Shown piece by piece: positions 16,964 through 64,000 of a stretch of DNA of 64,000 bases. This DNA is from Candidatus Omnitrophota bacterium (lineage in GTDB: Bacteria > Omnitrophota > Gorgyraeia > Gygaellales > Profunditerraquicolaceae), in the NCBI GenBank assembly GCA_003598025.1, contig QZKH01000006.1, positions 172,035-236,034 on the forward strand, given 5' to 3'. Position 1 is the first letter of the stretch; the number at the start of each line of letters is the position of its first letter. The position numbers and the translations under genes are program-made. Below the pieces are notes generated by a model that had not been told where the DNA came from, did not search any database, and saw only the letters and a list, made by a program, of their open reading frames with translations.

Positions 16964-16987
16964 AAGTTACTCACTTCCTTAGAGGAG

Positions 16988-18741: not shown

Positions 18742-18747
18742 AATGTA

Positions 18748-18776: not shown

Positions 18777-18805
18777 ATTAATAATTTTCCAAAAGGAGAA
18801 GTAAA

Positions 18806-19039
18806 ATGTTTTTCTTAATTTTTGCCGGGGTAGTTTCACTGGTTTTCGGGATACTATTCTTGTTTTTCCCTGTAGCATTGCGTAACCTTAATGATAAAGC
18901 AAACTTAATTATGACAAGGTCTTTGGCATCTCTTGATGAAAATATAATGAAAATGCGGCTGGGTGTCGGCATTTCTTTAATATTAGCTTCAATATTATCA
19001 TTTTTTGTAATCCTTTATATTATAAAAAGAAGTGGTTAA
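18806..19039 (+). CDS. small two-TM membrane protein, unknown function
   Basis: 77 aa, two hydrophobic helices, good SD. Sits between the pilin genes and pilM. Confidence 0.4.
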   Translation: MFFLIFAGVVSLVFGILFLFFPVALRNLNDKANLIMTRSLASLDENIMKMRLGVGISLILASILSFFVILYIIKRSG

Positions 19040-20729: not shown

Positions 20730-20730
20730 C

Positions 20731-37807: not shown

Positions 37808-38501
37808 CGAACATATTTTTGTGTTTAAGGCAGATAAATATCGGAAATATATAATTATTGCCCTGATAGTATTGCTTTTTTTGTTATTTGGCTCTCTCAG
37901 TATATCCAGATATATAGCTGCAGAAAGTTTTATGAAAGCAGAGGAGCTATTTAATAATGCCCAGGCAATAAGCGAAGATATTTTATTAGAAAAATCGTTT
38001 GCGTATCAAAAAACTATTAGATTATTAAATCGGGCAATTTCTCATAACAAATACAATGCCGATTATTACAGTTTCCTTTCAAGTTTATTATATACGGTAG
38101 TTGATAATCAGTCTCTTGCCGAACTCATTATGATCAATAATAAGGATTACTTTAAATCTCATAAGATATTGGATGCTGCCGAGTGGTATCAGGCGGAAGC
38201 TATTTTAAGGAATCCTGCCAATTACCTGTATTATTATAAGCTTGCTGAATTGTATATTAAATCCGGAGATACTATTAAGGCCGAAGAACAGCTGAAGAAG
38301 TCTATTCTATTTGATCCGCAGAATATAAATTTGAATCTTTCGCTGGCAAAGTTTTATTTAGACAGGGGAGATAGCGAGGAGTTTAAGAAATACCTCAAAG
38401 TTGCAATGGGCTTAGACAGGCTTGAATCAAAAGGCAAAGTATCTGAGAAGATGAATAATTTCCTAATAGGTATTGGGCAGGAGGGGGCTGTTACCGAATG
38501 A
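37791..38501 (+). CDS. TPR-repeat membrane-anchored protein
   Basis: N-terminal TM, TPR-like repeats. Confidence 0.4.
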   Translation: MSTANSEHIFVFKADKYRKYIIIALIVLLFLLFGSLSISRYIAAESFMKAEELFNNAQAISEDILLEKSFAYQKTIRLLNRAISHNKYNADYYSFLSSLLYTVVDNQSLAELIMINNKDYFKSHKILDAAEWYQAEAILRNPANYLYYYKLAELYIKSGDTIKAEEQLKKSILFDPQNINLNLSLAKFYLDRGDSEEFKKYLKVAMGLDRLESKGKVSEKMNNFLIGIGQEGAVTE

Positions 38502-39601
38502 AGATATTGGTCGTTGGTGCCGGGCCCGTAGGGTCTTATGTTTCCAGGCTTTTGCAAAAGAAGGGCAAAAACCTGGATATTACTGTCATTGAAGAACATC
38601 CTGAAGTCGGCAAGCCGGTGCATTGCGCCGGGCTTGTAAGCACTAAAGTATTTAGCGAAATAAGCCTGCCGTCTTTAAGTAAGAATCTCGTGCTTAACAA
38701 GATAGATGGGGCGGATTTTCATTTTGAGAATGAATCCTTCAGGATAAGAAGAAAGAACGCGGCTTTTGTAATAAACCGGAAGGATTTTGATATTTCTCTG
38801 GCAGAAGGCTTAAACATTGATTTTAATACTAAATTTGTCGGCATAGAGAAGAACCATAAATTTTTCATTGTTGAAACCGACAAAAGGGAATATGAGGCAG
38901 ATATAGTCATAGGCGCAGACGGTGCTAATTCTTTAGTAAGAAAGGTATTAAACCCCTCAAATAGCATACAATGTTTGCGGGGAGTGCAGTTCAGGATAGA
39001 ATCCCGCCAGCATGAAAGCAATTTTGTGCAGGTTTATTTAACTGACGAATCTTTTGCTTGGGTGATACCTGAGAATTATGGCATCGTAAGGGTAGGGATA
39101 TTGTCCGATAATCCTTATAAAGACTTAACTGATTTTATTGAAAAGGTGGGGATAAAAGGAGCGATACTTGAAAAATTCGCCGGATTAGTACCGATAGGCT
39201 CATGCCTTACCCAAAACCAGGGCCTGGTTTTGGTTGGGGATGCTGCTTGCCAGGTAAAGCCTTTAACACATGGAGGTATTTATTACGGAATGCGATGTGC
39301 TGAAGTGCTTGCTGATTGTATAATAAATTCTAAGATTAATGAGTATGAAAAGAGATGGAAAGCCAAATTTGATAGGGAGATACAGATCGGCCTTAAAGCC
39401 AGGAAATTTTATCAAAACTTAAGCCGTGATAATAAGAAGAGAATATTCAAATTACTTAAAAATAACGTTAAAATCCTGGAGAAATTTGGTGATTTCGAGA
39501 ACCATTCCAGGGTAATTTCTGCACTAATAAAAAATCCATCTTTACAAAGTTTTTTCGGTAAAGTATTTATAAGTTTTTTAAGAAACAATTCTATTCCTTA
39601 A
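38498..39601 (+). CDS. geranylgeranyl reductase family FAD-dependent oxidoreductase
   Basis: MKILVVGAGPVGSYVSRLL FAD motif. GDAACQVKPLTHGGIYYGM signature as in ChlP / digeranylgeranylglycerophospholipid reductases. Confidence 0.7.
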   Translation: MKILVVGAGPVGSYVSRLLQKKGKNLDITVIEEHPEVGKPVHCAGLVSTKVFSEISLPSLSKNLVLNKIDGADFHFENESFRIRRKNAAFVINRKDFDISLAEGLNIDFNTKFVGIEKNHKFFIVETDKREYEADIVIGADGANSLVRKVLNPSNSIQCLRGVQFRIESRQHESNFVQVYLTDESFAWVIPENYGIVRVGILSDNPYKDLTDFIEKVGIKGAILEKFAGLVPIGSCLTQNQGLVLVGDAACQVKPLTHGGIYYGMRCAEVLADCIINSKINEYEKRWKAKFDREIQIGLKARKFYQNLSRDNKKRIFKLLKNNVKILEKFGDFENHSRVISALIKNPSLQSFFGKVFISFLRNNSIP

Positions 39602-47980: not shown

Positions 47981-49042
47981 TTGGGCAACATAAAAGAATA
48001 TAAAACTGAAGACAAAAATAGAATCTTTGAACTTTTAAGCAGGACGTATAATCCACAGCTGGTAAAGATTTATGAGTCTATCTGGGAATGGTTATTTACT
48101 AATAATCCATTTTTGCCCGGAGATTCAGGTTGCGTATCAATTATGGAAGAAGGTAATGATTTAGCAGGGGTAGTCTGCAGTATTTTTGCGGATGTAAAAT
48201 TAAATAATTGTATCCGTAAATGCCGCTGGGCAAGTTTCTTTATTATCGATCAGCGGTACCGAGGGTCTGGAATTGAATTAGCCACGTCTGTTATGAATTC
48301 CAAATACCACCCTATGTTCGGTTTCCCGAATCCCAAAGCATCCGTCTTTGAGAAAAACTTAGGCTTTAGGCATATAGGCAATATTAAAAGTAGAATCCGT
48401 ATATTTAACATTTCGTCTTTTTTTAGAAGAATCCGGATTGATGTGCCTATTCTTAGTAAGACTGCAGATATATCCACAGCCTCCGACAAAGAGCTGGATT
48501 ATGATGATAATGGATTAAATATACGGAGAATATTTGATTTTGATGATACCTTTGATGATTTTTGGGAAATGGCTGCGTCAGGATATGATTATATAGTCGT
48601 CAGGAGCAGGTCATACCTGCATTGGAGATTTGTCGATTCGCCAATCAAGTATATGATTTATAAAGCTATCGGTAAGGATAATAGTCTAAAAGGGTATATC
48701 GTGCTCAGGATTCTTAAAAATAAAATAATGACTAAAGGCTATATCGTGGATATTTTTGCAAGGCAGGATGATTTTAAATCCATTAATTCATTAGTCAAGT
48801 TTTCCGTGTGTTTATTTAAGAAGGAAAAATGCGATCTTGCAGAATGCCTTATTTCTACCTCAAGGAGCGCTTACAATAGAGCATTATATCTTAACGGCTT
48901 TATCATAAACAGGCCTAAAGTAGAATTTTTGTTTTTTTCAGGCTTAGAAAGTGATATGTCACAAATCAGCGTTTTAGGCAAATGGTTCATTACTGCAGCC
49001 GACCCGGATTTAGAGATGACTAATATTTTCCCGGGAAGTTAA
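47981..49042 (+). CDS. GNAT-family acyl-CoA N-acyltransferase (FemAB/BioF2-like), paralog A
   Basis: QRYRGSGIELA acetyl-CoA-binding R-G-x-G motif. TTG start. Paralog of 51013..52053. Confidence 0.5.
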   Translation: MGNIKEYKTEDKNRIFELLSRTYNPQLVKIYESIWEWLFTNNPFLPGDSGCVSIMEEGNDLAGVVCSIFADVKLNNCIRKCRWASFFIIDQRYRGSGIELATSVMNSKYHPMFGFPNPKASVFEKNLGFRHIGNIKSRIRIFNISSFFRRIRIDVPILSKTADISTASDKELDYDDNGLNIRRIFDFDDTFDDFWEMAASGYDYIVVRSRSYLHWRFVDSPIKYMIYKAIGKDNSLKGYIVLRILKNKIMTKGYIVDIFARQDDFKSINSLVKFSVCLFKKEKCDLAECLISTSRSAYNRALYLNGFIINRPKVEFLFFSGLESDMSQISVLGKWFITAADPDLEMTNIFPGS

Positions 49043-50110: not shown

Positions 50111-51016
50111 ATGGCAGATTTAGGGGTTATAATACCTACCAGGAATAGGATAGGCCCTCTTTTTAAATGCCTGGAGTCATTAGTCAAGCAGGATTGTAGC
50201 AAGGATAAATTTGAAATATTCGTAGTTGAAGACGGCTGTAGTAGCAATATCAAGGGACTGGTTAACGATATCGCTGTTTGCGGAAATAACATAAGATATC
50301 TTAGCAACAATAAAAAAAGCGGTGCATCAGCTACTAGAAATTTAGGGTTAAAAATTTGTCACTCAGAAATCATTGCTTTTGTAGACGATGATTGCCGTTT
50401 GCCTGCGAATTGGGTAAGAAATATCTTATATTATCATAGCAAATATCCTGATGCCAAAGTTATCCAGGGTGAGGTTTTGGCCGACTCTTTAAAAAGTATA
50501 TTTGAAATCTCGGAATATCTGATCTACAGTGTTTTTTTTAAGAAAAGTATATATGAGCATAATGGTATTAAATCAATAGATATCCTTAATGCAGCGAATC
50601 TTTCATTAAAAAGGAGTATCATAGACGATAAAACGCTATTTTTTCGGGAAGATTTTAAATTCTCGGAAGATATTGATCTATCCAATAGGATCCTTTCCAA
50701 AGGAACGATTTTTTTCTACGTTGAGGATATTAAGGCCTATCATTCATACAGCAGCGATATATTTTCTTTTATAAGAAGAGGCATACGCGACGGCAGGGGG
50801 GAATATTTGATTAAGTGCTCTAAAGGTGCGCCTAAACAAGACAAAATTACAGGGATTCGGGGTATTAACTTTTTTAATTTTATGGTTAAGCTATATTTCA
50901 GGGAGTTTAGCATAGGCAAATCAATGGTTTTAACCCAACTGCATATATTAAGATGCTTATTGAGGCGTTTAGGTTTTGTATTTCAATTGGTTGTAATGGC
51001 TATTATTAAAACATGA
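50111..51016 (+). CDS. GT2-family glycosyltransferase
   Basis: LGVIIPTRNR...FVVEDGCS...FVDDDC motifs. Confidence 0.7.
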   Translation: MADLGVIIPTRNRIGPLFKCLESLVKQDCSKDKFEIFVVEDGCSSNIKGLVNDIAVCGNNIRYLSNNKKSGASATRNLGLKICHSEIIAFVDDDCRLPANWVRNILYYHSKYPDAKVIQGEVLADSLKSIFEISEYLIYSVFFKKSIYEHNGIKSIDILNAANLSLKRSIIDDKTLFFREDFKFSEDIDLSNRILSKGTIFFYVEDIKAYHSYSSDIFSFIRRGIRDGRGEYLIKCSKGAPKQDKITGIRGINFFNFMVKLYFREFSIGKSMVLTQLHILRCLLRRLGFVFQLVVMAIIKT

Positions 51017-52053
51017 TAAGAAGATTCAGAAAAGAAGATATTAAAGATTTGGCTGAATTGGCAAGTTCAGTTCTAGGGCCGACTTCAGAAAGACTTTTGC
51101 ACTGGCTGTTTATTGATAACCCTTTTTTACCTAAAGGCAAGACCAACCTTGTATTGGAGGAGGATTCTAAGATAGTCGGTATGGCTTTTAATGTCTATGT
51201 TAAATTGAAATTTTATGATAGGACACTTGATGCCAGATGGGCTTGTTTTTTTGTGACTAGCCCTGATTACAGGGGTTCAGGTATTGAGCTTGCAGAACAG
51301 TATATACAGATACCGTATTATCCTTTTTTGGCTTTTTCCACCAAGAAGCATTTTATGATGGAGTCAAGATTCGGTTTTAAAAAAATCTTTGATATATGCA
51401 GCTATATCAGCATAATCGATTTTAAAAAATTATTTAGATTTAAATTAGGAAAAAATCTTTTTCTTGAGCGCATCGGAGAATTTCTAAACCGATTACTCGG
51501 GTTAGGAAGCAAGATATGCGCTGAAAGAATGCCCAAAGGTTTGAATTTTGAGGAGATTACATATTTTGACGAAAGATTTAATGATTTATGGCGTAGGTGT
51601 TCGCCATATTACCAGATACTGGTTAAAAGGGATAAAGATTACCTGAATTGGAGGTTTACGCGTTCTCCATCGCAGTACAGGATTATTGCCTTAGTTGATG
51701 ATACCAAAGTTTACGGCTATATAGTTATCTCTGTGAACGAGAAGAATGGGCTTAAGAAAGGGGCTATCCTTGATTTGTTAGCAGCAAATGATAATAAAAC
51801 TGCTGTCATTGATGCGCTTTTGTCTGAAGCTTTAAGATATTTCAGGAAGGAAGGATGTTATTCTGCGGATTTTCTCATTCTTACCGCGAAAAAAGAATAC
51901 TTAAAGCCAATGCGCAAGCATGGTTTCTTATTTAAAAGACTGAGGTCTACCTTTGTGGTTTATAAAAAATGCGGGGGGGATATCAAGGGCTTAAGAAACT
52001 GGAAAAACTGGTTTGTCACGCGCTCTGACCCGGATTTAGAATTATGCGATTAA
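51013..52053 (+). CDS. GNAT-family acyltransferase, paralog B
   Basis: SPDYRGSGIELA motif. Conserved C-terminal RSDPDLEL (paralog A ends AADPDLEM). Confidence 0.5.
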   Translation: MIRRFRKEDIKDLAELASSVLGPTSERLLHWLFIDNPFLPKGKTNLVLEEDSKIVGMAFNVYVKLKFYDRTLDARWACFFVTSPDYRGSGIELAEQYIQIPYYPFLAFSTKKHFMMESRFGFKKIFDICSYISIIDFKKLFRFKLGKNLFLERIGEFLNRLLGLGSKICAERMPKGLNFEEITYFDERFNDLWRRCSPYYQILVKRDKDYLNWRFTRSPSQYRIIALVDDTKVYGYIVISVNEKNGLKKGAILDLLAANDNKTAVIDALLSEALRYFRKEGCYSADFLILTAKKEYLKPMRKHGFLFKRLRSTFVVYKKCGGDIKGLRNWKNWFVTRSDPDLELCD

Positions 52054-54186: not shown

Positions 54187-54939
54187 ATGAAAAAGATATT
54201 CAAGAATAAGACGGTAATTATAAGCGGAGGCTCAACTGGTATAGGCAGGGCTGTAGCCTTACATTTAGCTCAGGCCGGTGCCAATATATCATTTAGCTAT
54301 TTTAAGAGTAAATATCAGGCAGAGGTATTAAGAAAAGAGCTATGCGCTCTAAAAATTAAAACAAAGGCTTATCATGTAGATATTAAGAGTTTTGAATCAG
54401 TAAGTAAATGGGTGCAAGCTTCTAAGCGTTATTTCGGTGAAATAGACGCAGTGATAAACAATGCAGGCATATTTGAGCCGTATGCCCTTGCTTTCACAAG
54501 TAAATACACGTGGAAAAAGGTTATTGATACTAATTTAGGCGGAGTATTTAACTTGAGCCAGTCGGTGATCACGGATTTTATGAAGAGGAAAAAAGGCGTG
54601 ATTATAAATATTGTCTCTCTTAATGCTATAATAGGCGGTTCGCCGACTAACTATGTTGCCTCAAAATCCGGGATAATTGGTTTTACTAAATCTTTGGCCA
54701 GGGAGGTGTCTAAGTATAACATAAGGGTCAACGCTATAGCTCCGGGGTATATAGATACAGAGATGATAAAACATTTCAACCAGGACCATAGAAGGGCGCT
54801 TATATCAAGTATCCCGCTTGGGAGATTGGGATATCCTGATGATGTAGCAAAACTGGTTAAATTTTTGGTTAGCAATGAATCTTCTTACATAACCGGGCAG
54901 ACCATTATAATTGACGGCGGATTTTCTATGGTACTTTAA
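54187..54939 (+). CDS. SDR-family 3-oxoacyl-ACP reductase (FabG/ApeQ-like ketoreductase)
   Basis: TGGSTGIGRAVAL cofactor motif. NAG, S...YVASKSGIIG catalytic triad YxxxK. Confidence 0.85.
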   Translation: MKKIFKNKTVIISGGSTGIGRAVALHLAQAGANISFSYFKSKYQAEVLRKELCALKIKTKAYHVDIKSFESVSKWVQASKRYFGEIDAVINNAGIFEPYALAFTSKYTWKKVIDTNLGGVFNLSQSVITDFMKRKKGVIINIVSLNAIIGGSPTNYVASKSGIIGFTKSLAREVSKYNIRVNAIAPGYIDTEMIKHFNQDHRRALISSIPLGRLGYPDDVAKLVKFLVSNESSYITGQTIIIDGGFSMVL

Positions 54940-54943
54940 AACA

Positions 54944-56161
54944 ATGAATAAAAGAATCGTAATATCAGGGATAGGCATTATTTCACCTTTAGGCACGAAC
55001 AAGGATGAATTCTGGAGAGCTCTTAGAAATGGAGTCTCAGGATTTAAAGCAGAAGGCCATGTTTCAGGCAGGTTTGGAGCTAGAAAAGCAGCTTTGATCA
55101 GGAACGAAACGATCAAACCGATGTTTAAGGGGGGGCAACTGGCACCCAATAGATGCTCAAATTTAGCTTATTTAGCCGCGAGGATGGCTTTAGTTGACTC
55201 AGGGTTAACTATAGATGAAAAGAACACAGATCTTTTTGGGGTATGCACAGCATCAACCTTGTCTAATTTGTCTTGTTTAGCTAAGCTGACAAGGCAAGCA
55301 CTTAAAGGCGGGATGCGGGATTTGGACCCGACTTTATTACCGCATTCATTGTTGAATTCAACCTCCAGTTATATCTCGATAAAACTTAATATCCAGGGTT
55401 TTAATACCACTATATCTAATGGCCAGACATCAAGCCTGGATGCGATTGATTATGCAGCTAATTTAATCAAGCTTGACAGGGTTGCTTGTGTTATCGTTAT
55501 AGGAGTCGAAGAAGTAGCCAAAGTGGTCCTGGATGCGTTTTCTAGCGAAGGGATGCTGGCAGGAAATAACGGCCGGCAGATATGTTGCCCGTTTGATAAG
55601 AGGAGAAATGGCCTGGTCCTTGGAGAAGGTGCGATCGGGCTGGTGATTGAAGATATACAACATGCGTTTTCCCGGGAAGCTAAAATCTATGCAGAGATCC
55701 TAGGATATGGAAATTATTTTTCCTGCCTGAAAGGCAGTAGATTCTCAGGGGTACAAAAAAGCATGGCTAAGTCTATAGAAAAGAGCAGATTGGATATAAG
55801 GCAGATAGATTACATAAGCGCAGCTGCAAATTCTGACCAGTTTTTAGATTTATCGGAAACCATAGCTGTAAAAAAACTATTTGGCAGCAATGCAAAAAGA
55901 ATACCTGTAAGCGCGATTAAATCCATGATCGGTGAGACGATAAGTGCGGCAGGACTTTTTCAGGTTGTTTCTGCCATCGGGATGATGCATAACAATTTTG
56001 TCGCACCCACAATAAATTACAGGGTAAGAGACCCTGGTTGTGACTTAGAATATATCCCAAATAAATCTATTGTAAAGAAGATTAATACCGCGTTGATAAA
56101 TAATATTGGTTTTACGGGCAGCAGCTCAACACTTATTATATCCAAGCCTCAGCCGAATTAA
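54944..56161 (+). CDS. beta-ketoacyl synthase family, chain-length-factor-like (KS-beta; active-site Cys replaced by Gln, His dyad absent)
   Basis: Thiolase-fold KS. At the position aligning with FabF ATACTSG the sequence is SNGQTSS. HGTxT is replaced by AAANSD and KSMIGH by KSMIGE. Probable start MNKRIVISGIG at 54944; an upstream ATG at 54911 is also in frame. Confidence 0.7.
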   Translation: MNKRIVISGIGIISPLGTNKDEFWRALRNGVSGFKAEGHVSGRFGARKAALIRNETIKPMFKGGQLAPNRCSNLAYLAARMALVDSGLTIDEKNTDLFGVCTASTLSNLSCLAKLTRQALKGGMRDLDPTLLPHSLLNSTSSYISIKLNIQGFNTTISNGQTSSLDAIDYAANLIKLDRVACVIVIGVEEVAKVVLDAFSSEGMLAGNNGRQICCPFDKRRNGLVLGEGAIGLVIEDIQHAFSREAKIYAEILGYGNYFSCLKGSRFSGVQKSMAKSIEKSRLDIRQIDYISAAANSDQFLDLSETIAVKKLFGSNAKRIPVSAIKSMIGETISAAGLFQVVSAIGMMHNNFVAPTINYRVRDPGCDLEYIPNKSIVKKINTALINNIGFTGSSSTLIISKPQPN

Positions 56162-56171
56162 AGGAGTCAGC

Positions 56172-56414
56172 ATGATTAAAGATCTTAATAAAGAAGTCAT
56201 AAAAATAATATCTAAGGTTATTGCTATAAAGCCTGATAGGATTACCCCTGATTCCGATCTTTTTAGGGATTTGGGCGCCGATTCTCTTAAGGCGATAGAG
56301 ATTGTTGCGGCAATTGAAAAAAAGTATAAACTCAAGCTGGAGATTAAAAGGATTGCCAAGATTAAAACTCCCGGACAAATAATCAATTTGATTGAAGATG
56401 CCTTTAAAAAATGA
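56172..56414 (+). CDS. acyl carrier protein
   Basis: DLGADSLKAIEIV phosphopantetheine-attachment DSL motif. 80 aa. SD AAGGAG 8 nt upstream. Confidence 0.85.
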   Translation: MIKDLNKEVIKIISKVIAIKPDRITPDSDLFRDLGADSLKAIEIVAAIEKKYKLKLEIKRIAKIKTPGQIINLIEDAFKK

Positions 56415-56967
56415 AGCTCCTCGGGATAAAGCCCGAGGTTTCTTAGAGCGGAATACCGAGCGTACACACTCCATCCGCACCTTGAAAGGTACGGTTTTGT
56501 TGCCGCGAACGCATAAAATAAGCAGGTCTTTAAATCCGGAAGACCTGCTTCCCCAAAAGCGCCCGTTTATTTTTGTAGATAAGATCCTGGGATATGAGAG
56601 ATCAAAGAAAATTGTCGCGCTCAAGCATCTCAGGAAAAACAGTTTTTTTCTAAAAGGCCACTTTCCAGGGAATCCAATTATGCCCGGGGCCTTGATTGTT
56701 GAGGCTATGGGCCAGGCAAGCATTATGCTTTTCTACTTAAGCAACCCAAGCTTTTCCCCCCACAGTTGTAATCACTATTTAGTAAAGGTTGAAGCCACGT
56801 TTTTGTTTCCTATTCGGCCTAAGGAAGATATTGTCTTGGAGTCAAAGATAACGCATAGTACAGGCGAGTCCGCTATATTTGATACTTGTGCGCGGGTGGG
56901 TTCAAAGATTGCCTCTACCGCAAAGATATATCTTGTAATCAAGAAAAAAAACCATGGCGCAAAATAG
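56392..56967 (+). CDS. FabZ/FabA-like 3-hydroxyacyl-ACP dehydratase (hotdog fold)
   Basis: LLPQKRPFIFVDKI and HFPGNPIMPGALIVEAMGQA motifs. 5' boundary uncertain (TTG 56392, ATG 56398, or internal TTG near 56492). Confidence 0.7.
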   Translation: MKMPLKNEAPRDKARGFLERNTERTHSIRTLKGTVLLPRTHKISRSLNPEDLLPQKRPFIFVDKILGYERSKKIVALKHLRKNSFFLKGHFPGNPIMPGALIVEAMGQASIMLFYLSNPSFSPHSCNHYLVKVEATFLFPIRPKEDIVLESKITHSTGESAIFDTCARVGSKIASTAKIYLVIKKKNHGAK

Positions 56968-58168
56968 AAGAGTAGCCGTAACTGGCTTAGGCGTTGTTTC
57001 GTCTGTTGGGATTGGTAAAGATCATTTTTGGAATTCGATTTCAAATGGAAAAAGCGGGATTACAAGAATAAAATCTTTTGACACCAGCGCTTTTGATTGC
57101 CATTACGGCGGTGAAGTCAAAGGTTTCTCTGTATTTGATTTTCTTGATGATAAAAACGTTGCTTTACTTGGCAGGAACTCTCAATTTGCAATAATTTCTT
57201 CTTTTTTGGCGCTTAAAGATTCCGGCTATAGATTGGATACATTAAAAAGAGAAAAAACGGGTGTAATCCTGGGGACAGTCTTTGGCGAAAAGGGAATGGA
57301 GCATTCTTTAGAGGTGGCAGCGCAAAGAAAACCTGATAAAATTACATACTCTCAGATAGCAAGCTCTTTACCTAATTGTATATCTTCAAATGTGGCAGCG
57401 TATTTTTCTTTATCAGGCAGGAATTCTGTGATCCCTGCTGCATGCGCAGCAGGCAATTATTCAATAAGCCACGCGTTTGATTTAATAAAATCCGGAGATT
57501 TGAATTGTGCCTTAGCCGGAGCTTCGGATTACTTCTCTAAAGCGGCTTTTTATTCATTTAACCGCTTGTATGCAATGGCGCCAAGAAAATGCCAGCCATT
57601 TGATAAAAACAGAAAAGGAATGCTTTTGGGTGAAGGCAGCGCCATCCTGTTTCTGGAGACAGTTGATTCTGCCTTAAAGAGAGGGGCGCATATTTATGCC
57701 GAGATACTTGGGTATGGGCTTTCTTGTGATGCTCGCCATTTAACAGCGCCCAGCCAGCAGGGTATTGAAAAATGTATCGTAAAGGCGCTTCGCTATTCAG
57801 GAATAGGGAACAGGCAGGTAGATTATATCAGCGCCCATGGCACAGGTACTTACTCTAATGACCGGACGGAATGCGCGGCGATCAAGAGGATATTCCCGGG
57901 TTACAAATCTATTCCGGTCAGTTCCATTAAATCAATGCTTGGGCATACATTAGGAGCTGCTTCCAGTATTGAAGCTGTTGCTTGTTGCCTCAGTCTGGAA
58001 AAAGGTATTATCCCGCCGACAATTAATTTCAGGACTACAGATAAGGAGTGCGACGTTGACTGCGTGCCGAATAAAGCGAGAAAGAAGAATATTAAGGTTG
58101 TTTTGAACAACGGATTTGCTTTCGGAGGCAATAATTGTTGCGTAGTTTTTAAAAAATGGGGTAAATGA
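56954..58168 (+). CDS. beta-ketoacyl-ACP synthase (canonical KS-alpha, FabF-like)
   Basis: PAACAAGN (active Cys), HGTGT and KSMLGHTLGAAS (both His) present. 404 aa. Confidence 0.85.
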   Translation: MAQNRRVAVTGLGVVSSVGIGKDHFWNSISNGKSGITRIKSFDTSAFDCHYGGEVKGFSVFDFLDDKNVALLGRNSQFAIISSFLALKDSGYRLDTLKREKTGVILGTVFGEKGMEHSLEVAAQRKPDKITYSQIASSLPNCISSNVAAYFSLSGRNSVIPAACAAGNYSISHAFDLIKSGDLNCALAGASDYFSKAAFYSFNRLYAMAPRKCQPFDKNRKGMLLGEGSAILFLETVDSALKRGAHIYAEILGYGLSCDARHLTAPSQQGIEKCIVKALRYSGIGNRQVDYISAHGTGTYSNDRTECAAIKRIFPGYKSIPVSSIKSMLGHTLGAASSIEAVACCLSLEKGIIPPTINFRTTDKECDVDCVPNKARKKNIKVVLNNGFAFGGNNCCVVFKKWGK

Positions 58169-58171
58169 TCA

Positions 58172-59641
58172 ATGACAGAGTATGATGCGATTATAATCGG
58201 TTCAGGGCTTGGCGGCCTTGGGAGTGCCGCAGTACTGGCAAAAGAAAAAAAGAATGTCCTAGTATTGGAGAAAAACCATTATTTCGGCGGGTATGCTGTT
58301 GTTTTCCAGAGAAAGGGATTTAAGTTTGATTTGTCTTGTCATAGTATTAACAGTTTTAAAGGTGTAACTCCCGATATACTTGACCGATGCGGTATTAAAG
58401 GCAAAATTAACCTGATTAAACCTAAATTCGCCTATCATTCGTTTTTCCCCGGTTATGATTTTACCTGTATGCAGTCCGGGCCAGATATGTTTAAACGAAT
58501 CTTATTTAGCTCTTTTCCCAAAGAAAGGCGTAATATTTCCAAGCTGATTAGTTTAATGTCGAATATCTATTACGGGTTTAAAAACTCATCCGGTCCTGAT
58601 TCAGGGTATATTTCACGTGATCTAATTAAATTTGCTAATTTGACCTGTTCTCAGGTAATCAATAGATTTCTCAAGGATAGAACGTTAAGGAGCATTTTTG
58701 GCCAATTATATTTTTTCTTCGGGTCTTCATTAAAGAAAACATCTTTTCTGAACTTTTGTAACATTTTTTTTGATTATCTTTGCAAAGGTTCATATTTGAT
58801 TGAGGGCGGATCTAATAAACTTGTAGATGAATTAGTAGCAGTTATCAGGAAGAATGGCGGCAGGCTAGTATTGGATTCTGAAGTCACAAAAATAATCATT
58901 GGAAAAAATAATGTAAGCGGGGTTGTTACTAAGGATGGAAAAGAATATCTTTGTAAAGATGTTATTTCCGATATTTCTCCGGATATTGTATTCCGGAAAC
59001 TTATTGACAGGCGCCATTTGGGCGATGGTCTAGATGCGCTTGATTCTTTAGAGCCTTCGATTTCGGCTTTTGCTGTTTTTGTCGGGACAAAATGTGATTA
59101 TAAAAGTTTGTTGCCTTTTGAATTCTTGATGTTTTTAAATACAGGTTCTAGCCTGGATAGGCAATTCCAGGCGGCGTTAAAGTGTGACTTTAAAAATACA
59201 ACCCTAGCCGTAACTTTATTTTCAAATATTGATTCAAGTTATGCCCCTTTAGGTAAATCGAGCCTCTCTATTATCAGCCTTTCCGGATACAATTTCTGGA
59301 AAGGGCTTAAAAACGATGAATATCTCTCAGTTAAAGAAAAGTGTGCGGATATACTGGTAAATAGAGCTAATGATATCCTGCCTGGGTTAACAGATTCCAT
59401 TGAAATAAGGAATATCGCTACGCCATTAACCATGGAAAGATACACAGGTAATTACCGTGGTGCTATATACGGAGCTGCGCGCCATACCCGAAGATTAAAC
59501 ATAGCAAGCCTGTTGCGTGAATCAAAAATTAATAATCTCTACTTTGCCGGGGCCTGGTCTTCGCGCGGTGGAGGATATCTTGGCTCATTGCAATCAGGAG
59601 TTATCGCTGCGGAGTCAGCCTTAGATAGAGGTATGCAATAA
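58172..59641 (+). CDS. FAD-dependent oxidoreductase, phytoene-desaturase (CrtI/amine oxidase) family
   Basis: YDAIIIGSGLGGLGSAAVLA FAD motif, ...EKNHYFGG. 489 aa. Confidence 0.7.
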   Translation: MTEYDAIIIGSGLGGLGSAAVLAKEKKNVLVLEKNHYFGGYAVVFQRKGFKFDLSCHSINSFKGVTPDILDRCGIKGKINLIKPKFAYHSFFPGYDFTCMQSGPDMFKRILFSSFPKERRNISKLISLMSNIYYGFKNSSGPDSGYISRDLIKFANLTCSQVINRFLKDRTLRSIFGQLYFFFGSSLKKTSFLNFCNIFFDYLCKGSYLIEGGSNKLVDELVAVIRKNGGRLVLDSEVTKIIIGKNNVSGVVTKDGKEYLCKDVISDISPDIVFRKLIDRRHLGDGLDALDSLEPSISAFAVFVGTKCDYKSLLPFEFLMFLNTGSSLDRQFQAALKCDFKNTTLAVTLFSNIDSSYAPLGKSSLSIISLSGYNFWKGLKNDEYLSVKEKCADILVNRANDILPGLTDSIEIRNIATPLTMERYTGNYRGAIYGAARHTRRLNIASLLRESKINNLYFAGAWSSRGGGYLGSLQSGVIAAESALDRGMQ

Positions 59642-61104
59642 TGAAGGTAATAATTTCTTATCCGCCCTTACAAGGGAAAGGTTTCCCCATGCTTCGCCAG
59701 GCACGTCAGTTTCAATGGGTCTCTATCCCGTCGCATATTTATCCTATTATATCTGCGTCTGCATTGACGCTTCTTAAAAAAGATGGTTTTGATGCTGTTT
59801 TTAATGATTGCCTTTTAGAGAAATGGCCTGAGCAGAAGTTTTTCGATTTTATCGATCTCCAACAACCCGATGTGATTGCCTTTGAAACTAAAACCCCGGT
59901 AATAAAATCTCACTGGAGGATAATAGACAGGATAAAAGAACGCAATCAGAAAGTTAAGGCCGTGCTTATGGGGGATCATGTGAGTGTTTTTCCCGAGGAA
60001 TCGCTTAATAATTGCAAGGTTGATTATGTGATTACGGGAGGAGATTACGACCTTGGCCTTTTGGGCCTGGCTAAGCACTTAAGAGAAGGGTCTCCTTTTC
60101 CTAAGGGGATATGGTGCAGGCAGGAGGCAGGGCTGTTTAACAGCGGCTCAGCTGAAACGAACGCAGACCTGAACAAACTGCCTTTTATTAATAGAGAGCT
60201 GACTCCGTGGAAGCTTTACGGCGAGAAATGGAAGAGGCGTTACCCGTTTGCCTATACTATGGCAGGCAGGGATTGTCCTTATGGCAGATGCAGTTTTTGT
60301 TCCTGGGCCAATATCTATCCGAATTTCAGGGTAAGAGAACCGGATAATTTTTTAGAGGAGATCGATATCCTTGTGAATAAATATGGCGCCAGGGAGATAT
60401 TTGATGACACAGGGACTTTTCCTCAAGGTGCCTGGCTTGAAAAGTTTTGTAATGGTATGGTCAAAAAAAAGTTTAATAAAAAAATTATTTTTTCTTGCAA
60501 CAGCCGGTTTGATTATTTGACAGAAGATAATGCCAGGCTGATGAAAATGGCTGGTTTCAGGAAATTGAAACTTGGCCTTGAGTCAGCCAGCCAAGAGACT
60601 TTAGACAGGATAAACAAAGGGATAACTATTGAACAGGTAAAAAATGGCTGCAGACTCGCTGCCAAAGTTGGATTAAATGTGCATCTTACGGTTATGTTTG
60701 GTTATCCTTGGGAAAAGAAAAGCGATGTGCTTAGGACGATAAATTTCGTAAGAGGCCTGCTGAATAAAGGCCATATAGAGATGCTGCAATCTACGCTCCT
60801 TGTGCCATATCCGGGGACTGCTTTATTCAATGACGGCTTAGCTAATGGCTGGTTTAGATTTGACCATAGAGAATACGAAAGATACGGTATGCAGGAGGCG
60901 GTCTTTAAAACTATGGATATCTCGAGCGAAGAATTGAAGGTTTTATGCAGGAAAACATATGGCTTATTTTTTTCACCGCCGTACATTCTTAAGAAAATCA
61001 TTAATAAGGATTTTATTGGCAACTTGAATTATTTCATTAAGGGTGCAGTGGCTATGGCTGGCCACTCTATTGATTTTTCCGGTGGTAGAGGCAAAAACAT
61101 ATGA
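59641..61104 (+). CDS. B12-binding domain radical SAM protein (class B), noncanonical CX4CX2C
   Basis: Cobalamin-binding-like N-terminus (AVLMGDHVS...YVITGGDYD). Cluster motif MAGRDCPYGRCSFC. TAATG overlap with upstream gene. Confidence 0.75.
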   Translation: MKVIISYPPLQGKGFPMLRQARQFQWVSIPSHIYPIISASALTLLKKDGFDAVFNDCLLEKWPEQKFFDFIDLQQPDVIAFETKTPVIKSHWRIIDRIKERNQKVKAVLMGDHVSVFPEESLNNCKVDYVITGGDYDLGLLGLAKHLREGSPFPKGIWCRQEAGLFNSGSAETNADLNKLPFINRELTPWKLYGEKWKRRYPFAYTMAGRDCPYGRCSFCSWANIYPNFRVREPDNFLEEIDILVNKYGAREIFDDTGTFPQGAWLEKFCNGMVKKKFNKKIIFSCNSRFDYLTEDNARLMKMAGFRKLKLGLESASQETLDRINKGITIEQVKNGCRLAAKVGLNVHLTVMFGYPWEKKSDVLRTINFVRGLLNKGHIEMLQSTLLVPYPGTALFNDGLANGWFRFDHREYERYGMQEAVFKTMDISSEELKVLCRKTYGLFFSPPYILKKIINKDFIGNLNYFIKGAVAMAGHSIDFSGGRGKNI

Positions 61105-61928
61105 AAAGAATATTACAATTTGCTGCTTTATCAGTAGTATATTTAATAAGTTTCATTATCTACTATTCCGGATTGTTTAAAGTCATAGTTTTTGTCAGAA
61201 AAAAAATACTTAAGAAAACAAGGGTTATCGTCCTTGCTTATCATAGTATTGCCGATTATTCGCCCGTCTACGCAAACAAGAAAGAGTTTATTACGCCTAT
61301 AAGGCAATTCAGAAGGCAGGTATCATACTTGAAAAATAATTTTCATATTGTGCCGTTTGAAGAATTTAAAAGCATTTTACAGAATGGCCGGGTAAATGAA
61401 GATATAGCTGTATTAACATTTGATGATGGGCACCGGGATGTTTTTTCTAACGCACTAAGCATAATATCGGAATTTAAGCTACCGGCAGTTTTTTTCTTAA
61501 CTACCGGATTTATCGGCAGAGAAAACTATCTTACCTGGGAGCAGGTCAATATGATGAGAGCAAGAGGGTTTGAATTCGGCTGTCATACTGTTACTCACCC
61601 TCATTTGGATAGAATAAGCAGTGATATGGTAAAAAGAGAAGTTATGGAATCAAAACTGGAGTTAGAGAAGAGAATCGGCAAAGAGATAAACTATTTTTCT
61701 TACCCCTACGGTGATTATAATGAAAGTGTTGTCAGCATTATTAAAGAATGCGGGTTCAGCGCTGCTGTAACGACCGAAGACTCAAATTGTGATCTATCCA
61801 GTACCGACCTTTTCAGGATAAACAGGAAAACAGTATTAAACAGGCCATTTTGTTTTTTTGTCCTTAAAATTGAAGGTTTATTTGAGGGCGGTTTTTGGGA
61901 ATATATAAGGAAAAAGATATTTTACTAG
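61101..61928 (+). CDS. polysaccharide deacetylase (NodB/CE4 family)
   Basis: FDDGHRD (Asp-Asp, His) and HTVTHPHL metal-binding motifs. N-terminal TM. Confidence 0.85.
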   Translation: MKRILQFAALSVVYLISFIIYYSGLFKVIVFVRKKILKKTRVIVLAYHSIADYSPVYANKKEFITPIRQFRRQVSYLKNNFHIVPFEEFKSILQNGRVNEDIAVLTFDDGHRDVFSNALSIISEFKLPAVFFLTTGFIGRENYLTWEQVNMMRARGFEFGCHTVTHPHLDRISSDMVKREVMESKLELEKRIGKEINYFSYPYGDYNESVVSIIKECGFSAAVTTEDSNCDLSSTDLFRINRKTVLNRPFCFFVLKIEGLFEGGFWEYIRKKIFY

Positions 61929-62674
61929 CTATGGCAGAGGCGATTGACTTTTTTGGAGTTAAAGTTTCTAAGTTCACCAAGCGCACCGCAGCCGATGAGA
62001 TTGTTAATCTTGGGGTAAGCGGCAAAAGCAAATTCATTACTTATCTTAATGCCCATTGTTTTAATTTATTCTGTTCCAATGAGGAGTATAGAAAATATAT
62101 TTTATCAGCTGATTGTATTTATGCAGACGGTCAATCCATAGTATGGGCCTCTAAACTATCGGGAGGACGTTTGCCAGAAAGAATCAATGCCTCAGATTTA
62201 ATCGAAGATATCTGCTTAAAAGCCAGAGCCGGTAACATGAAATTATTTATTTTATGCCATAGCAAAGAGACGTGCGAAAAAACAATAAGTAATTTAACCA
62301 GGGAATTTCCCGGTTTAAAAATCTCAGGTTGCTACGTCTCCGGAGACTCCGGTAGCGAAAATGACTTAGTAAATATAATTAATCAATATAAGCCGGATAT
62401 ATTGATGGTCGGCTTGGGGCCCCCCTACCAGGAAGGTTTTATTTACAGAAACAGAAATAGTCTCAATGTTAATTTATGTTGGGCAGTAGGTGGTTTGTTC
62501 GATTTATTATCGGGAAAATTTAAGAGGGCCCCTTTATGGATCAGAAAGTACGGGCTTGAATGGCTATTCAGGCTGTCCCAAGAACCCAAGAGGCTTTGGC
62601 GTAGGTATCTATTAGGCAATTTTATCTTTATTTTCAATATCATTAAATCCAGTGTTAGAATAAAAGCTTCTTGA
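61895..62674 (+). CDS. WecB/TagA/CpsF family glycosyltransferase (GT26)
   Basis: ~250 aa with conserved central ADG...GL...LCHS...GLGPPYQE pattern of GT26. Confidence 0.75.
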   Translation: MGIYKEKDILLAMAEAIDFFGVKVSKFTKRTAADEIVNLGVSGKSKFITYLNAHCFNLFCSNEEYRKYILSADCIYADGQSIVWASKLSGGRLPERINASDLIEDICLKARAGNMKLFILCHSKETCEKTISNLTREFPGLKISGCYVSGDSGSENDLVNIINQYKPDILMVGLGPPYQEGFIYRNRNSLNVNLCWAVGGLFDLLSGKFKRAPLWIRKYGLEWLFRLSQEPKRLWRRYLLGNFIFIFNIIKSSVRIKAS

Positions 62675-62709
62675 ATGCCTTATTTTTAGCTGCATAATAT
62701 TAAACATAT

Positions 62710-64000
62710 ATGTCATTAAACAACAGCATAAAATTCAGATATATTGTTTTTGCGGTGATTGTATTGTATTTCTTGCCTCTATTTATCCAGATTACAACGC
62801 AGCCAAAGCCGTTTTTAAGATTTTCTTTGCCGTATATTTTCACCCAGTTTGTTGATGAACATCAATATTTTATAATGTTAAACAGCATTTTAAAAGACGG
62901 AGACCTGGATTTAAAGAATAATTACCAGAATATAGCGTTCAACGGTTCTTCAGACGGCGGCATGCTTACCAGGGGCAGAATTGTTGAGAGGAATACATTT
63001 GTAGTCAATAAGCAGGGAATACGTGTTGCAGACGGCAATGACCCGTCTTATTACAGGGATGCTTTTATTAGCGGAGAGCTTAAAGCAGGGAACAACAGCT
63101 ATGAGCTTAGCCAGTTAAAGGAATACTCTCTTAGCTCTCCCGGATTGCCGATTTTGCTATCTTTTCTGCTTTTTCCGTTTAAATCGCTACCCGGCCTGGA
63201 GCCGGCAACAATATTCATCAGTACACTGGTTTCTTTGCTGGGGCTTTTTTTTCTGTTCAGATTATTAAGTTGCTTCACTGAAAACAAAAACGCAGCACTA
63301 TTCATTACCTTGTGTTTTGGGTTAGCTACGCCGGTATGGTATTATGCCGGGGTATTTGGGAAAGAGAGTTTTGTATTCTTTTTGTTAAGCCTGGCTTTAT
63401 ATTTATTATTTTGCAGGAAGCGCTATTTATTGGTCGGTTTGGTGATTGCCCTGGCAGCATATATAAGAAACCCTTTGTTTTTATCATCTTTTTTATTCTT
63501 TGTTTATGAATTAAAGCCCGCAAAGGTCAAGGAAAGGTTGCCGCTGATTATCCCCAGTATCTTGATGCTGCCTGTCGTCATCTTTACCCACAGGTACTAT
63601 TGGTATAATTGTTTTATGGAATTAATAATTTATTTATCAGGCAGCGGGCATTATCTAAAATTATTATTTCCTTTTTTAGCAGTTTCTTTTTTGATATCCA
63701 TGGCGGTATTGTCGGGTTATAGCCCGGTAAGTAAAAGATTGAAAATCTGGTTATACGCGGTATCTTTACCGGCATTCACATCTCTATTGTATATAGCTTT
63801 AAAGAACGCAGGAGTTTTGTTTGGTTTTATGTTTTCTTTGGAATACGGATTGCTTACCTTTACCCCGTTCATCATTTATTCTTTTTTTGGGCTGGCGCTT
63901 ATCTTTAAGAAAGACAAAAGATTATTTAGCTTTATACTGGTCAATACACTGCTGTTATTTCTGTATTACGCAAATTTCTGGGACCGTAGGGAACCCAATC
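62710..64000 (+). CDS. polytopic membrane protein (GT-C/PMT_2-like?), 3'-truncated by window edge
   Basis: ATG at 62710. Frame open to the last base with no stop. About 10 TM helices. Not in the ORF track because no stop codon lies within the window. Confidence 0.4.
   Translation, partial: MSLNNSIKFRYIVFAVIVLYFLPLFIQITTQPKPFLRFSLPYIFTQFVDEHQYFIMLNSILKDGDLDLKNNYQNIAFNGSSDGGMLTRGRIVERNTFVVNKQGIRVADGNDPSYYRDAFISGELKAGNNSYELSQLKEYSLSSPGLPILLSFLLFPFKSLPGLEPATIFISTLVSLLGLFFLFRLLSCFTENKNAALFITLCFGLATPVWYYAGVFGKESFVFFLLSLALYLLFCRKRYLLVGLVIALAAYIRNPLFLSSFLFFVYELKPAKVKERLPLIIPSILMLPVVIFTHRYYWYNCFMELIIYLSGSGHYLKLLFPFLAVSFLISMAVLSGYSPVSKRLKIWLYAVSLPAFTSLLYIALKNAGVLFGFMFSLEYGLLTFTPFIIYSFFGLALIFKKDKRLFSFILVNTLLLFLYYANFWDRREPN

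Follow-up and report, generated by a model that had tools for sequence, protein, structure and literature searches.

What a set of fatty acid synthase-like genes does in the middle of a surface-polysaccharide operon is the question raised by positions 54187 to 64000 of a 64,000-nucleotide stretch (the window) from a Candidatus Omnitrophota bacterium (contig QZKH01000006.1, positions 172,035 to 236,034). Ten genes there encode a 3-oxoacyl-acyl carrier protein (ACP) reductase (KR), a non-catalytic ketosynthase (KS)-like protein (KS-beta, here KS1), an ACP, a FabZ-like dehydratase (DH), a catalytic ketosynthase (KS-alpha, here KS2), a FAD flavoprotein, a B12-binding radical S-adenosylmethionine (SAM) enzyme, a CE4 deacetylase, a GT26 glycosyltransferase and a polytopic membrane protein. 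An earlier reading of the sequence (the original prediction) had joined them into one pathway for a polyene or polyunsaturated acyl lipid that is possibly alkylated or cyclized by the radical SAM enzyme and then glycosylated. All ten open reading frames (ORFs) were present on the plus strand, each with a significant match in profile searches with Pfam and NCBIfam, which bore out the predicted genes and domains apart from the "GT-C-like" label of the last gene. The block comprises two cassettes. The genes from KR to the flavoprotein (cassette 1, 54187-59641) appear to form a self-priming type II fatty acid synthase variant of the anammox Cluster I kind, and the four genes from the radical SAM enzyme onward (cassette 2, 59641-64000) are a separate, recurrent glycan cassette. 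In the reading that we favor with moderate confidence, the two cassettes in one operon constitute a dedicated supply of acyl-ACP, probably of short or medium chain length, for a surface glycan that is acylated or has a lipid anchor. Both sets of genes probably contribute to the same product.

The ketosynthase pair and its partner enzymes

Cluster I (KustE3603-3608) was described in 2009 (PMC2649909) and comprises amxACP, amxFabZ, a pair of FabF homologues, a protein like phytoene dehydrogenase and a cobalamin radical SAM enzyme (bioRxiv 10.64898/2026.05.19.726425). According to the same preprint, the FabF homologues amxFabF2 and amxFabFmut are a heterodimer resembling a KS paired with its chain-length factor (CLF), which decarboxylates malonyl-ACP only as a heterodimer and prefers C6-C8 probes, and Phe135 and Val139 of amxFabFmut shape the chain-length preference. 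The closest solved structures for both KS proteins of the window were chains B and C of 9s5h and 9s5i: KS2 matched 9s5h_B with 405 bits and 47.5% identity, and KS1 matched 9s5h_C with 263 bits and 37.7% identity. We take these chains to be the amxFabF2 (B)/amxFabFmut (C) heterodimer, the tie between the entry and the preprint being our inference. In a neighbor-joining tree (no bootstrap), KS2 fell in a KS-alpha clade with amxFabF2 near its base, and KS1 fell in a KS-beta clade that included amxFabFmut. In both clades, the window protein formed a sister pair with the protein of one other locus, L086, which is described below. The comparison with ladderane biosynthesis made in the original prediction was thus the right one, since the KS pair is closest to these chains and the parts list is that of Cluster I plus a KR.

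The active sites were read by alignment to E. coli FabF, placed by its ACTSG, YHMTS and AHGTS motifs. The alignment to 9s5h, with sequences taken from the HMMER alignment printout, gave the same register. The Cys/His/His triad was intact in KS2, whereas in KS1 the catalytic Cys was replaced by Gln, His303 by Lys and His340 by Ala. The ISNGQTSS segment of KS1 aligned with ATACTSG of FabF and with ISNGVTSS of 9s5h_C, which has Val at the Cys position. The alignments therefore confirmed the predicted exchange of Cys for Gln and the loss of both His residues in KS-beta beside a canonical KS-alpha, and the KS-alpha/CLF-like pair with its own ACP, KR, DH and CrtI-family flavoprotein is real. Among the 119 best non-self KS1 homologues, the Cys position was occupied by Tyr in 102, Phe in 16, Cys in 1 and Gln in none, and neither active-site His was present in any of them. 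Because none of these relatives carries Gln, the residue is a lineage-specific change. It sits where the CLFs of type II polyketide synthases (PKSs) have their conserved active-site Gln. At the positions of Phe135 and Val139 of amxFabFmut, KS1 had Leu and Leu in the 9s5h alignment.

The proteins of cassette 1 gave mixed scores with housekeeping models. KR and KS2 barely exceeded the cutoffs of one NCBIfam FabG subfamily model (227 against 222 bits) and one FabF subfamily model (NF005589, 393 against 387 bits), respectively; KR passed none of the FabG equivalogs, and KS2 remained below the TIGR03150 cutoff (406 against 494 bits). The ACP scored 55.8 bits with TIGR00517 (cutoff of 70.45) and the DH 93 and 90 bits with the FabZ models, both below cutoff (113 for the higher score). 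No FabD, FabH or FabI was found near the module. An alternative weighed below holds that cassette 1 serves general fatty acid synthesis. The scores of KR and KS2 favor it, whereas those of the ACP and DH, which lie below the AcpP and FabZ equivalog cutoffs, argue against it, as does the lack of canonical basic ACP-binding residues in the DH.

The best solved relatives of the DH were 7qv0 and the 8ay* entries, near canonical FabZ in score (88 against 79 bits), and its identity to the anammox DHs was 32-38%. The amxFabZ type is recognized by Ile in place of the tunnel Gly and by non-basic residues at the ACP-patch positions 96 and 115 (PMC10139942). The window DH has Ile69 at the conserved tunnel Gly, within a QASI motif, and Leu and Thr at positions 96 and 115. 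Six anammox DHs showed Ile in an identical QASI motif, Ser or Thr at position 96, and Ile or Val at position 115, compared to Gly, Lys and Arg at the three positions in E. coli FabZ. Taken together, the tunnel residues of the DH and KS-beta suggest a short or medium chain of about C4-C8. A long polyene is not supported by these residues.

The flavoprotein scored closer to isomerase and saturase models than to CrtI, and its homologues are annotated as retinol saturase or prolycopene isomerase in databases. Its closest homologues (37-42% identity) directly follow KS-alpha in L086 to L089 and in L030. The anammox flavoproteins belong to the same Pfam family, with 25-28% identity, and the gene is located after the KS pair as in the anammox loci. 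From these parts, a route may be proposed in which the KS-alpha and the inactive KS-beta form a heterodimer that decarboxylates malonyl-ACP on the private ACP and then elongates the chain, as shown for the anammox homologues. KR and the narrow-tunnel DH would process the beta-carbon to give a short 3-hydroxy- or enoyl-ACP, and the flavoprotein may isomerize, saturate or desaturate the chain at a C=C bond. The block has no gene for an enoyl reductase, and the flavoprotein could take its place.

A bona fide phytoene-desaturase-family gene is also present elsewhere in the window (26694-28145), with 423 bits for crtI_fam (cutoff of 238) compared to 101 bits for the flavoprotein of cassette 1. Its neighbors encode a polyprenyl synthase (23103-24185, minus strand), a UbiA prenyltransferase (24265-25167) and a Pyr_redox_2 flavoprotein (25164-26306).

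Genomic setting and relatives of the lipid module

The ten-gene block is not a self-standing operon but the 3' part of a surface-polysaccharide gene run of ~30 kb. All genes from 33577 to the window end lie on the plus strand, with gaps of at most ~200 nt, and of at most ~81 nt from 34604 on. The upstream run starts with genes for Wza-like, Wzc-like and Wzy/O-antigen-ligase-like proteins, followed by those for a TPR protein, a geranylgeranyl-reductase-family flavoprotein and a Glyco_trans_1_2 protein. About 12 glycosyltransferases are encoded in the whole run, and its upstream part has two GT4, three GT9 and three GT2 proteins, and further a 640-amino-acid (aa) surface-carbohydrate protein, two GNAT-like paralogues and one radical SAM/SPASM protein. 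The lipid genes have sugar genes on either side. From the end of the last GT9 gene to the last gene of the block, the junctions were +11, +4, +10, -14, +3, -1, -4, -34 and +35 nt, the exception being the ACP-DH junction with a spacer of 82 nt, provided that the DH starts at 56497. Cassette 1 is thus joined to the sugar genes by 11 nt between the GT9 gene and KR, and by an overlap of 1 base between the flavoprotein and radical SAM genes.

The closest relative of KS1 (49% identity) is encoded in L086, a 33.8-kb contig in which a similar arrangement was found. The gene order in L086 starts with Wzc, a flavoprotein (60% identical to 38498-39601), a Glyco_trans_1_2 protein (43%), a GT4 protein (44%), an ABC transporter and a GT2 protein. 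It continues with a GNAT-like protein (7597-8655, 41% identical to 51013-52053), which lies two genes upstream of the KS genes, a second GT4 protein, KS-beta, ACP, KS-alpha (60%) and the flavoprotein (40%), and ends with a B12-radical SAM enzyme, a methyltransferase, an unknown protein and a second B12-radical SAM enzyme. KR and DH were absent from L086, and no GT9 gene was found near its module. The two radical SAM proteins matched the window enzyme with 68 and 94-105 bits and were nearer to another window protein of this type (4324-5736). The case for a common product of the lipid and sugar genes rests mainly on this finding, that KS-beta, ACP, KS-alpha and the flavoprotein are kept in a syntenic polysaccharide locus in two divergent genomes. 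With this recurrence and the mid-operon position of the module, the idea of one product is probable, but not in the predicted form of a glycosylated, radical-SAM-modified polyene.

The two GNAT-like paralogues of the window (47981-49042 and 51013-52053) are ~350 aa long and share 32% identity. Their family match is a weak N-terminal signal for Acetyltransf_1 (28.7 bits), and a PDB sequence search yielded no solved relative. An AF2 model from a two-sequence alignment was unusable (pLDDT of 45.9), with two GNAT-like halves in its secondary structure. As a separate observation, the geranylgeranyl-reductase-family flavoprotein at 38498-39601 reached 165 bits (cutoff of 158.8), and its 60% identical counterpart lies at 393-1505 of L086. 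Saturation of the polyprenyl carrier, or of some other isoprenoid, is a possible role.

We surveyed relatives of the module by a KS-beta pattern scan with one genome per species (GTDB) and analyzed the best 80 of 240 confirmed relatives, using tblastn and our own crude ORF calls and clustering to find the genes of each locus. By label, 50 of the 80 loci belong to Omnitrophota, 17 to Nitrospirota/Thermodesulfovibrionia, 7 to Planctomycetia and 6 to others. The recurrent module consists of KR, KS-beta, ACP, DH and KS-alpha; a third KS (Cys/Lys/His) and the flavoprotein often come next. KR was present in 73 loci (42-56% identity to the window KR), DH in 58 and the flavoprotein in 30, or in 24 of the 44 loci with enough flank. 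The window order of KR/KS-beta/ACP/DH/KS-alpha/flavoprotein was found again in L087 to L089 and L030. A 7TM-receptor histidine kinase lies beside the module in 42 of the 80 loci, and other frequent neighbors are PAS/GAF kinases, single-domain response regulators, HD-GYP proteins, NAD_binding_4 acyl reductases, nitroreductases, PlsC-type acyltransferases and an SRPBCC-NAD protein. The kinase-flanked module, found in most of these genomes (among L006-L085; for example, L010 13100-21047 and L027 2730-9227), resembles a lipid or signal pathway that is connected to two-component signaling.

About ten Omnitrophota loci (L029, L049, L051-L053, L059, L060, L063, L065 and L072) hold only KS-beta, KR and DH, with Phe/Arg/Asn as the KS-beta residues and no adjacent catalytic KS partner. 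In these loci the genes lie between the riboflavin operon with nusB (ribBA-ribH-nusB-ribD-ribE) and acylphosphatase-ligA-xerC-cca. A lipid A role for the genes upstream of KS-beta in this subgroup was considered and rejected, as they are the riboflavin operon, nusB, a PHP-domain gene, ligA, xerC and cca. A metagenome scan provided no further glycan-embedded module; the best new loci, L090 (46% identity) and L091 (43%), were both on short contigs and had the ordinary type of module. A literature search on Omnitrophota fatty acid synthesis gave nothing useful. "Ladderane" clusters of unknown function have been reported in Omnitrophota and other phyla (PMC9902471). The claim that the gene combination is undescribed does not hold for its core, considering these clusters, the description of Cluster I in 2009 and the presence of the module in 80 species-level genomes.

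The survey also provides the best case for an alternative, in which the two sets of genes are juxtaposed without shared chemistry: the module would make a membrane or signaling lipid or serve general fatty acid synthesis, and the sugar genes would make a non-acylated exopolysaccharide. Homologues of the radical SAM enzyme, CE4, GT26, membrane protein and GT9 of the window were found near the module in none of the 80 loci. The usual partners are the histidine kinase, response regulators, HD-GYP, acyl-ACP/thioester reductase, nitroreductase and PlsC-type acyltransferase, and a subgroup has its genes in a housekeeping setting. A glycan acyltransferase was not found among the scanned proteins of the window. 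These points are opposed by the glycan genes on both sides, with their 11-nt and overlapping junctions, and by the embedding in L086, which is kept despite protein identities of only 40-60%. Furthermore, the embedded versions are a separate KS lineage and have lost the histidine kinase, reductase and third-KS partners known from other loci; the response regulators are likewise missing beside the module of the window. We consider juxtaposition rather unlikely on balance, and prefer a shared product.

The features of the block are listed in the table. Two gene starts differ from the mechanical calls: KS1 most likely starts at ATG 54944 rather than TTG 54911, and the DH most likely starts at TTG 56497, with GAAAGG 7 nt upstream, rather than at 56392. 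The hairpin downstream of the ACP gene lies inside the mechanical 5' extension of the DH ORF, which argues for the start at 56497; homologues of the DH are ~145 aa long. The hairpin has 7 bp, 6 of them GC, with a folding energy of -17 kcal/mol and a z score of -2.3, and may be an attenuator or processing site, perhaps raising the ACP relative to the downstream genes. An Rfam scan of the whole window gave no match, and a sigma-70 promoter scan gave 59 hits compared to 56.9 +/- 7.9 in shuffled sequence, so that no operon boundaries were drawn from it.

Table. Features of the ten-gene block and its upstream flank (positions in the window).
Feature	Position	Strand	Evidence
Upstream exopolysaccharide/LPS-like gene run	33577-54175	+	Wza-, Wzc- and Wzy-like proteins and glycosyltransferases
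FabG-type 3-oxoacyl-ACP reductase (KR)	54187-54939	+	adh_short_C2 E 3.5e-59; NF009466 FabG 227 bits, cutoff 222
KS-beta/chain-length-factor-like protein, non-catalytic (KS1)	54944-56161	+	ketoacyl-synt N and C domains
Dedicated ACP, 80 aa	56172-56414	+	PP-binding E 1.4e-15; GADSL Ser at residue 38
GC-rich hairpin followed by TTTCTT	56419-56438	+	terminator-like site, 5 nt after ACP stop codon
FabZ-like 3-hydroxyacyl-ACP dehydratase (DH), amxFabZ type	56497-56967 (mechanical ORF start 56392)	+	FabA domain E 3e-18
Catalytic KS-alpha (KS2)	56954-58168	+	fabF TIGR03150 406 bits; NF005589 393 bits, cutoff 387
CrtI/CrtISO/RetSat-like FAD flavoprotein	58172-59641	+	Amino_oxidase E 1e-21; carot_isom 141 bits; crtI_fam 101 bits, cutoff 238
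B12-binding radical SAM enzyme	59641-61104	+	Pfam B12-binding and Radical_SAM; CX4CX2C motif
Membrane-anchored CE4 polysaccharide de-N-acetylase	61101-61928	+	Polysacc_deac_1 E 7e-31; DD at 108, HTVTH at 162; N-terminal transmembrane segment
GT26 (WecG/TagA/CpsF) glycosyltransferase	61895-62674	+	PF03808 E 2.5e-53; TIGR00696 134 bits, cutoff 69
Polytopic membrane protein, cut by window end	62710->64000	+	~9-11 hydrophobic segments; weak GT87 match E 0.009

Parts related to cyclic di-GMP surround the polysaccharide locus: a PAS-histidine kinase-GGDEF protein (6468-8363), a PAS-histidine kinase with a C-terminal PilZ domain (10068-12026, minus strand) and, immediately upstream of the export genes, a PilZ protein (31553-32149). 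A type II secretion/type IV pilus-like set lies at 13041-21330, with a T2SSE ATPase, a T2SSF platform protein, a weak PilM-like match and several ORFs without a family match. It is followed by a radical SAM/SPASM gene (21835-22806).

The radical SAM enzyme and the glycan cassette

The radical SAM enzyme at the head of cassette 2 matched PF04055 with 69 bits and the B12-binding family PF02310 with 31.6 bits, just under the cutoff of 32.1. Homologues at E <= 1e-20 numbered 1758, and over 100 were at least 50% identical. A CPYG[RK]C..C motif (CX4CX2C, residue 212) is present in 119 of the 120 best listed matches, the window protein itself included, compared to CX3CX2C in the two other B12-radical SAM proteins of the window. 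To our knowledge, this CX4CX2C family has no characterized member and no assigned function. All six orthologue contexts (51-63% identity; L001, L002/L003, L004, L005, L161 and L162) are polysaccharide loci, encoding Wzx, Wzy, initiating transferases, GT2, GT4, GT87 and PMT_2 proteins. A GT26 gene directly adjoins the orthologue in four of the six contexts examined, and a KS or ACP gene was found in none. The window enzyme scored 550-645 bits with the glycan-locus orthologues but only 36-41 bits with five anammox Cluster I radical SAM proteins, which score 792-985 bits among themselves.

GT26 (PF03808 181 bits, cutoff of 27.4) is thus the usual neighbor of the window-type radical SAM enzyme. 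The CE4 protein scored 107 bits with PF01522 and 52-68 bits with the PgaB, IcaB and NodB models. The last protein, incomplete in the window, is polytopic, as predicted; its assignment to a GT-C family is plausible only, with a weak GT87 match (16 bits, cutoff of 25) and an AZOBR_p60025-family match at E 0.002. In L162, GT87 and PMT_2 proteins follow the radical SAM/GT26 pair. The deacetylase, GT26 and membrane protein are ordinary members of the surrounding exopolysaccharide locus, and their recruitment as tailoring enzymes of a lipid pathway is not supported. The window has two more B12-radical SAM genes (953-2302 and 4324-5736), which are interleaved with genes for a phosphatidylserine decarboxylase (2315-2986), a PMT_2 GT-C protein (3005-4327) and a GT2 protein (5743-6471), a set that looks like another small glycan or lipid-headgroup cassette.

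These results bear directly on the single polyene pathway of the original prediction. It has in its favor the combination of KS-alpha, KS-beta, ACP, DH, flavoprotein and B12-radical SAM enzyme, which is the parts list of Cluster I, and a block without an enoyl reductase. In addition, a B12-radical SAM gene directly follows the flavoprotein gene in the window (59641, with the 1-nt overlap), in L086 (14368) and in the anammox locus L100 (12698). The three enzymes are mutually non-orthologous, however, and the shared position may be a coincidence in radical-SAM-rich loci or the result of non-orthologous replacement. B12-radical SAM genes are frequent in glycan loci, with three in the window and several each in L002, L004, L086 and L161, and their adjacency to lipid genes is weak evidence for this reason. 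Membership of the enzyme in the lipid pathway is contradicted by its orthologues in glycan loci without lipid genes and by its low scores with Cluster I, and a radical-SAM-alkylated or cyclized polyene finds no specific support, as the enzyme is not in the conserved lipid module. The hallmarks of aryl-polyene loci are absent, the DH tunnel residue argues against long chains, and the flavoprotein is nearer to isomerase and saturase models than to CrtI. We regard this pathway as improbable.

Two candidate assignments for the radical SAM enzyme were tried and rejected. TIGR04072 (rSAM_ladder_B12) was not usable as a test for Cluster I: the three B12-radical SAM proteins of the window scored 87-106 bits, and the genuine anammox protein (L100 12698-14158) scored only 88 bits (cutoff of 360), showing that this model does not represent the Cluster I enzyme. 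For an HpnJ-like ring contraction by the radical SAM/deacetylase/glycosyltransferase trio, TIGR03471 gave 152 bits (cutoff of 577.6), the B12-radical SAM proteins elsewhere in the window matched the model as well or better, and no hopanoid gene was seen.

No likelier than the polyene pathway is a special acyl supply for a lipid A-type molecule, with a core built by the three GT9 heptosyltransferase-like enzymes: one GT9 gene directly upstream of KR, a dedicated ACP, a FabZ and a pair of FabF-like genes, which the AcpXL system also has, and a Wzy/O-antigen-ligase-like gene would fit it, but no lpx gene or LpxXL-type acyltransferase was found among the scanned proteins of the 64-kb window, the GT9 matches fall below the equivalog cutoffs, the L086 module has no GT9 gene nearby, and the tunnel residues suggest short rather than very long chains. 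In Rhizobium, AcpXL, FabZXL, FabF1XL and FabF2XL make the very-long-chain fatty acid of lipid A, and this system is the analogue for such a reading.

In the preferred reading, a private acyl-ACP supply for a surface glycan, the radical SAM enzyme would act on a sugar or a carrier-linked sugar, and CE4 would remove an N-acetyl group and could expose an acceptor amine. GT26 would extend an undecaprenyl-PP-linked acceptor, and the polytopic protein may assemble or polymerize the product. The radical SAM, GT26 and membrane proteins presumably have this same part in loci that lack lipid genes. The acyl-ACP from cassette 1 would be the donor for glycan acylation or for a lipid anchor. One possible route is the N-acylation of the amine freed by CE4, perhaps with the GNAT-like proteins, whose genes lie two to five genes upstream, as transferases, in analogy to NodF/NodE with NodB and NodA, or to LpxC/LpxD.

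Several points weigh against this proposal. Among the scanned window proteins there was no recognizable acyl-ACP:sugar acyltransferase or thioesterase and no NodA match, and candidate transferases are limited to the GNAT-like proteins, whose Pfam match is weak (28.7 bits). The chain length is drawn from two or three residues, a weak inference. Glycan-embedded examples number only two, and their chemistry may differ because L086 lacks KR and DH. Given the usual sensor-kinase neighbors, and the housekeeping setting in one Omnitrophota subgroup, the ancestral role of the module is not glycan-related. The shared position after the flavoprotein gene may also reflect a lipid-directed role for such radical SAM enzymes. 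We know of no proven product for the module in any organism, anammox bacteria included.

A more far-reaching version, which we put forward tentatively, is that the KS lineage of the window and L086 was taken over to supply a surface polysaccharide with short-chain acyl-ACP of its own, giving a previously undescribed acylated or lipid-anchored Omnitrophota glycan. If this is true, the ancestral job of the Cluster I enzymes would be to provide a short acyl unit, possibly an unsaturated one, rather than to form cyclobutane rings. The radical SAM position shared by the window, L086 and the anammox loci could then reflect a common need for radical chemistry on the acyl chain.

Significance and comparison with known systems

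The core of the module is an already known kind of cluster. What is new is the glycan-embedded lineage, the Gln in KS-beta and the radical SAM/GT26 cassette set apart from the lipid module, as well as the wide occurrence of amxFabZ- and amxFabFmut-type features outside anammox bacteria. Cluster I is the leading candidate for ladderane biosynthesis, although its product and pathway are not established, and a recent preprint calls it unique to ladderane producers. The presence of its core (genes for the KS/CLF-type heterodimer, the ACP, the narrow-tunnel DH and the flavoprotein) in at least 80 species-level genomes of two non-anammox lineages argues for a more general task, and the glycan-embedded version suggests a specific destination of the acyl chain, in a polysaccharide or its anchor. 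"Ladderane" calls from genome mining in Omnitrophota should not be read as ladderane synthesis. The six-gene set is compact and could be expressed without anammox genetics, and the B12-radical SAM CX4CX2C family (more than 1700 homologues), which travels with GT26, is singled out as unstudied.

Type II PKSs such as that for actinorhodin resemble the window in their heterodimer-type KS/CLF pair with an inactive partner and in the Gln at the Cys position of the CLF. The Iga11-type KS of the ishigamide Iga11/Iga12 system (6kxd) was the second-best solved relative of KS2 (315 bits). KS1, on the other hand, is nearer to amxFabFmut and FabF than to the solved CLFs (155 bits for the actinorhodin KS, 1tqy_A), and the window has no cyclase, aromatase or other tailoring genes of type II PKS loci, with no Polyketide_cyc, SnoaL or similar domain among the scanned proteins. 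Aryl-polyene clusters likewise have a KS/CLF-like pair, ACP, KR and DH and no enoyl reductase. Their adenylating starter enzyme, thioesterase, methyltransferase, LolA/MMPL exporter and second DH subunit are absent from the scanned proteins of 30605-64000. For the whole window, the scan covered ORFs of at least 150 aa other than 21331-21786, 28142-29023 and 28996-29844, and found no adenylating enzyme, ammonia-lyase, thioesterase, LolA/MMPL, cyclase or enoyl reductase; the predicted absence of the classic aryl-polyene accessories was borne out.

Cluster I remains the closest system in its parts list, in a KS-beta without Cys/His/His, and in a DH with Ile for Gly and no basic ACP-patch residues. 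In anammox loci from the metagenome scan (L100, 82-90% identical to the crystallized proteins; Scalindua-like L097-L116, 65-72%), the order is DH, KS-alpha, KS-beta, flavoprotein and B12-radical SAM. The order of KS-alpha, flavoprotein and radical SAM matches that of the window, save that the anammox KS-beta lies between KS-alpha and the flavoprotein. The window differs in its additional KR and its KR/KS-beta/ACP/DH/KS-alpha order, in Gln rather than Val or Thr at the KS-beta position, in a flavoprotein of only 25-28% identity and a non-orthologous radical SAM enzyme, and in the polysaccharide-operon setting. Its host is named Omnitrophota and not an anammox planctomycete, and no anammox marker gene was found among the window proteins scanned with Pfam or NCBIfam.

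The kinase-linked clusters (L087-L089 and L030) have the same six core genes in the same order, with identities of 41-56% for KR, KS-beta and KS-alpha, ~40% for the DH and 37-41% for the flavoprotein. They are probably what antiSMASH reports as "ladderane" in these phyla (PMC9902471). In contrast to the window, they have a third KS, histidine kinases, response regulators, HD-GYP proteins, an acyl reductase, a nitroreductase and a PlsC-type acyltransferase, with Tyr or Phe rather than Gln at the KS-beta Cys position and without the flanking glycan genes. Cassette 2 has its counterpart in the glycan cassettes of uncultured bacteria (L001, L002, L161 and L162), with an orthologous radical SAM enzyme, the same motif and an adjacent WecG/TagA-family glycosyltransferase. 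The window differs from these in the CE4 gene between the radical SAM and GT26 genes and in the lipid module directly upstream.

The combination of both cassettes can be compared with the Nod-factor system, in which the ACP NodF and the KS NodE make a special acyl chain, the CE4 enzyme NodB de-N-acetylates the sugar and NodA N-acylates it. A NodA homologue is missing in the window, the NodB model gave 52 bits against a cutoff of 240, and the export proteins are of the polymer type (Wza/Wzc/Wzy). Nevertheless, the two systems share a dedicated ACP and KS, a CE4 enzyme and glycosyltransferases in one locus, and the Nod-factor system provides a precedent for the delivery of a private acyl-ACP to an amino sugar.

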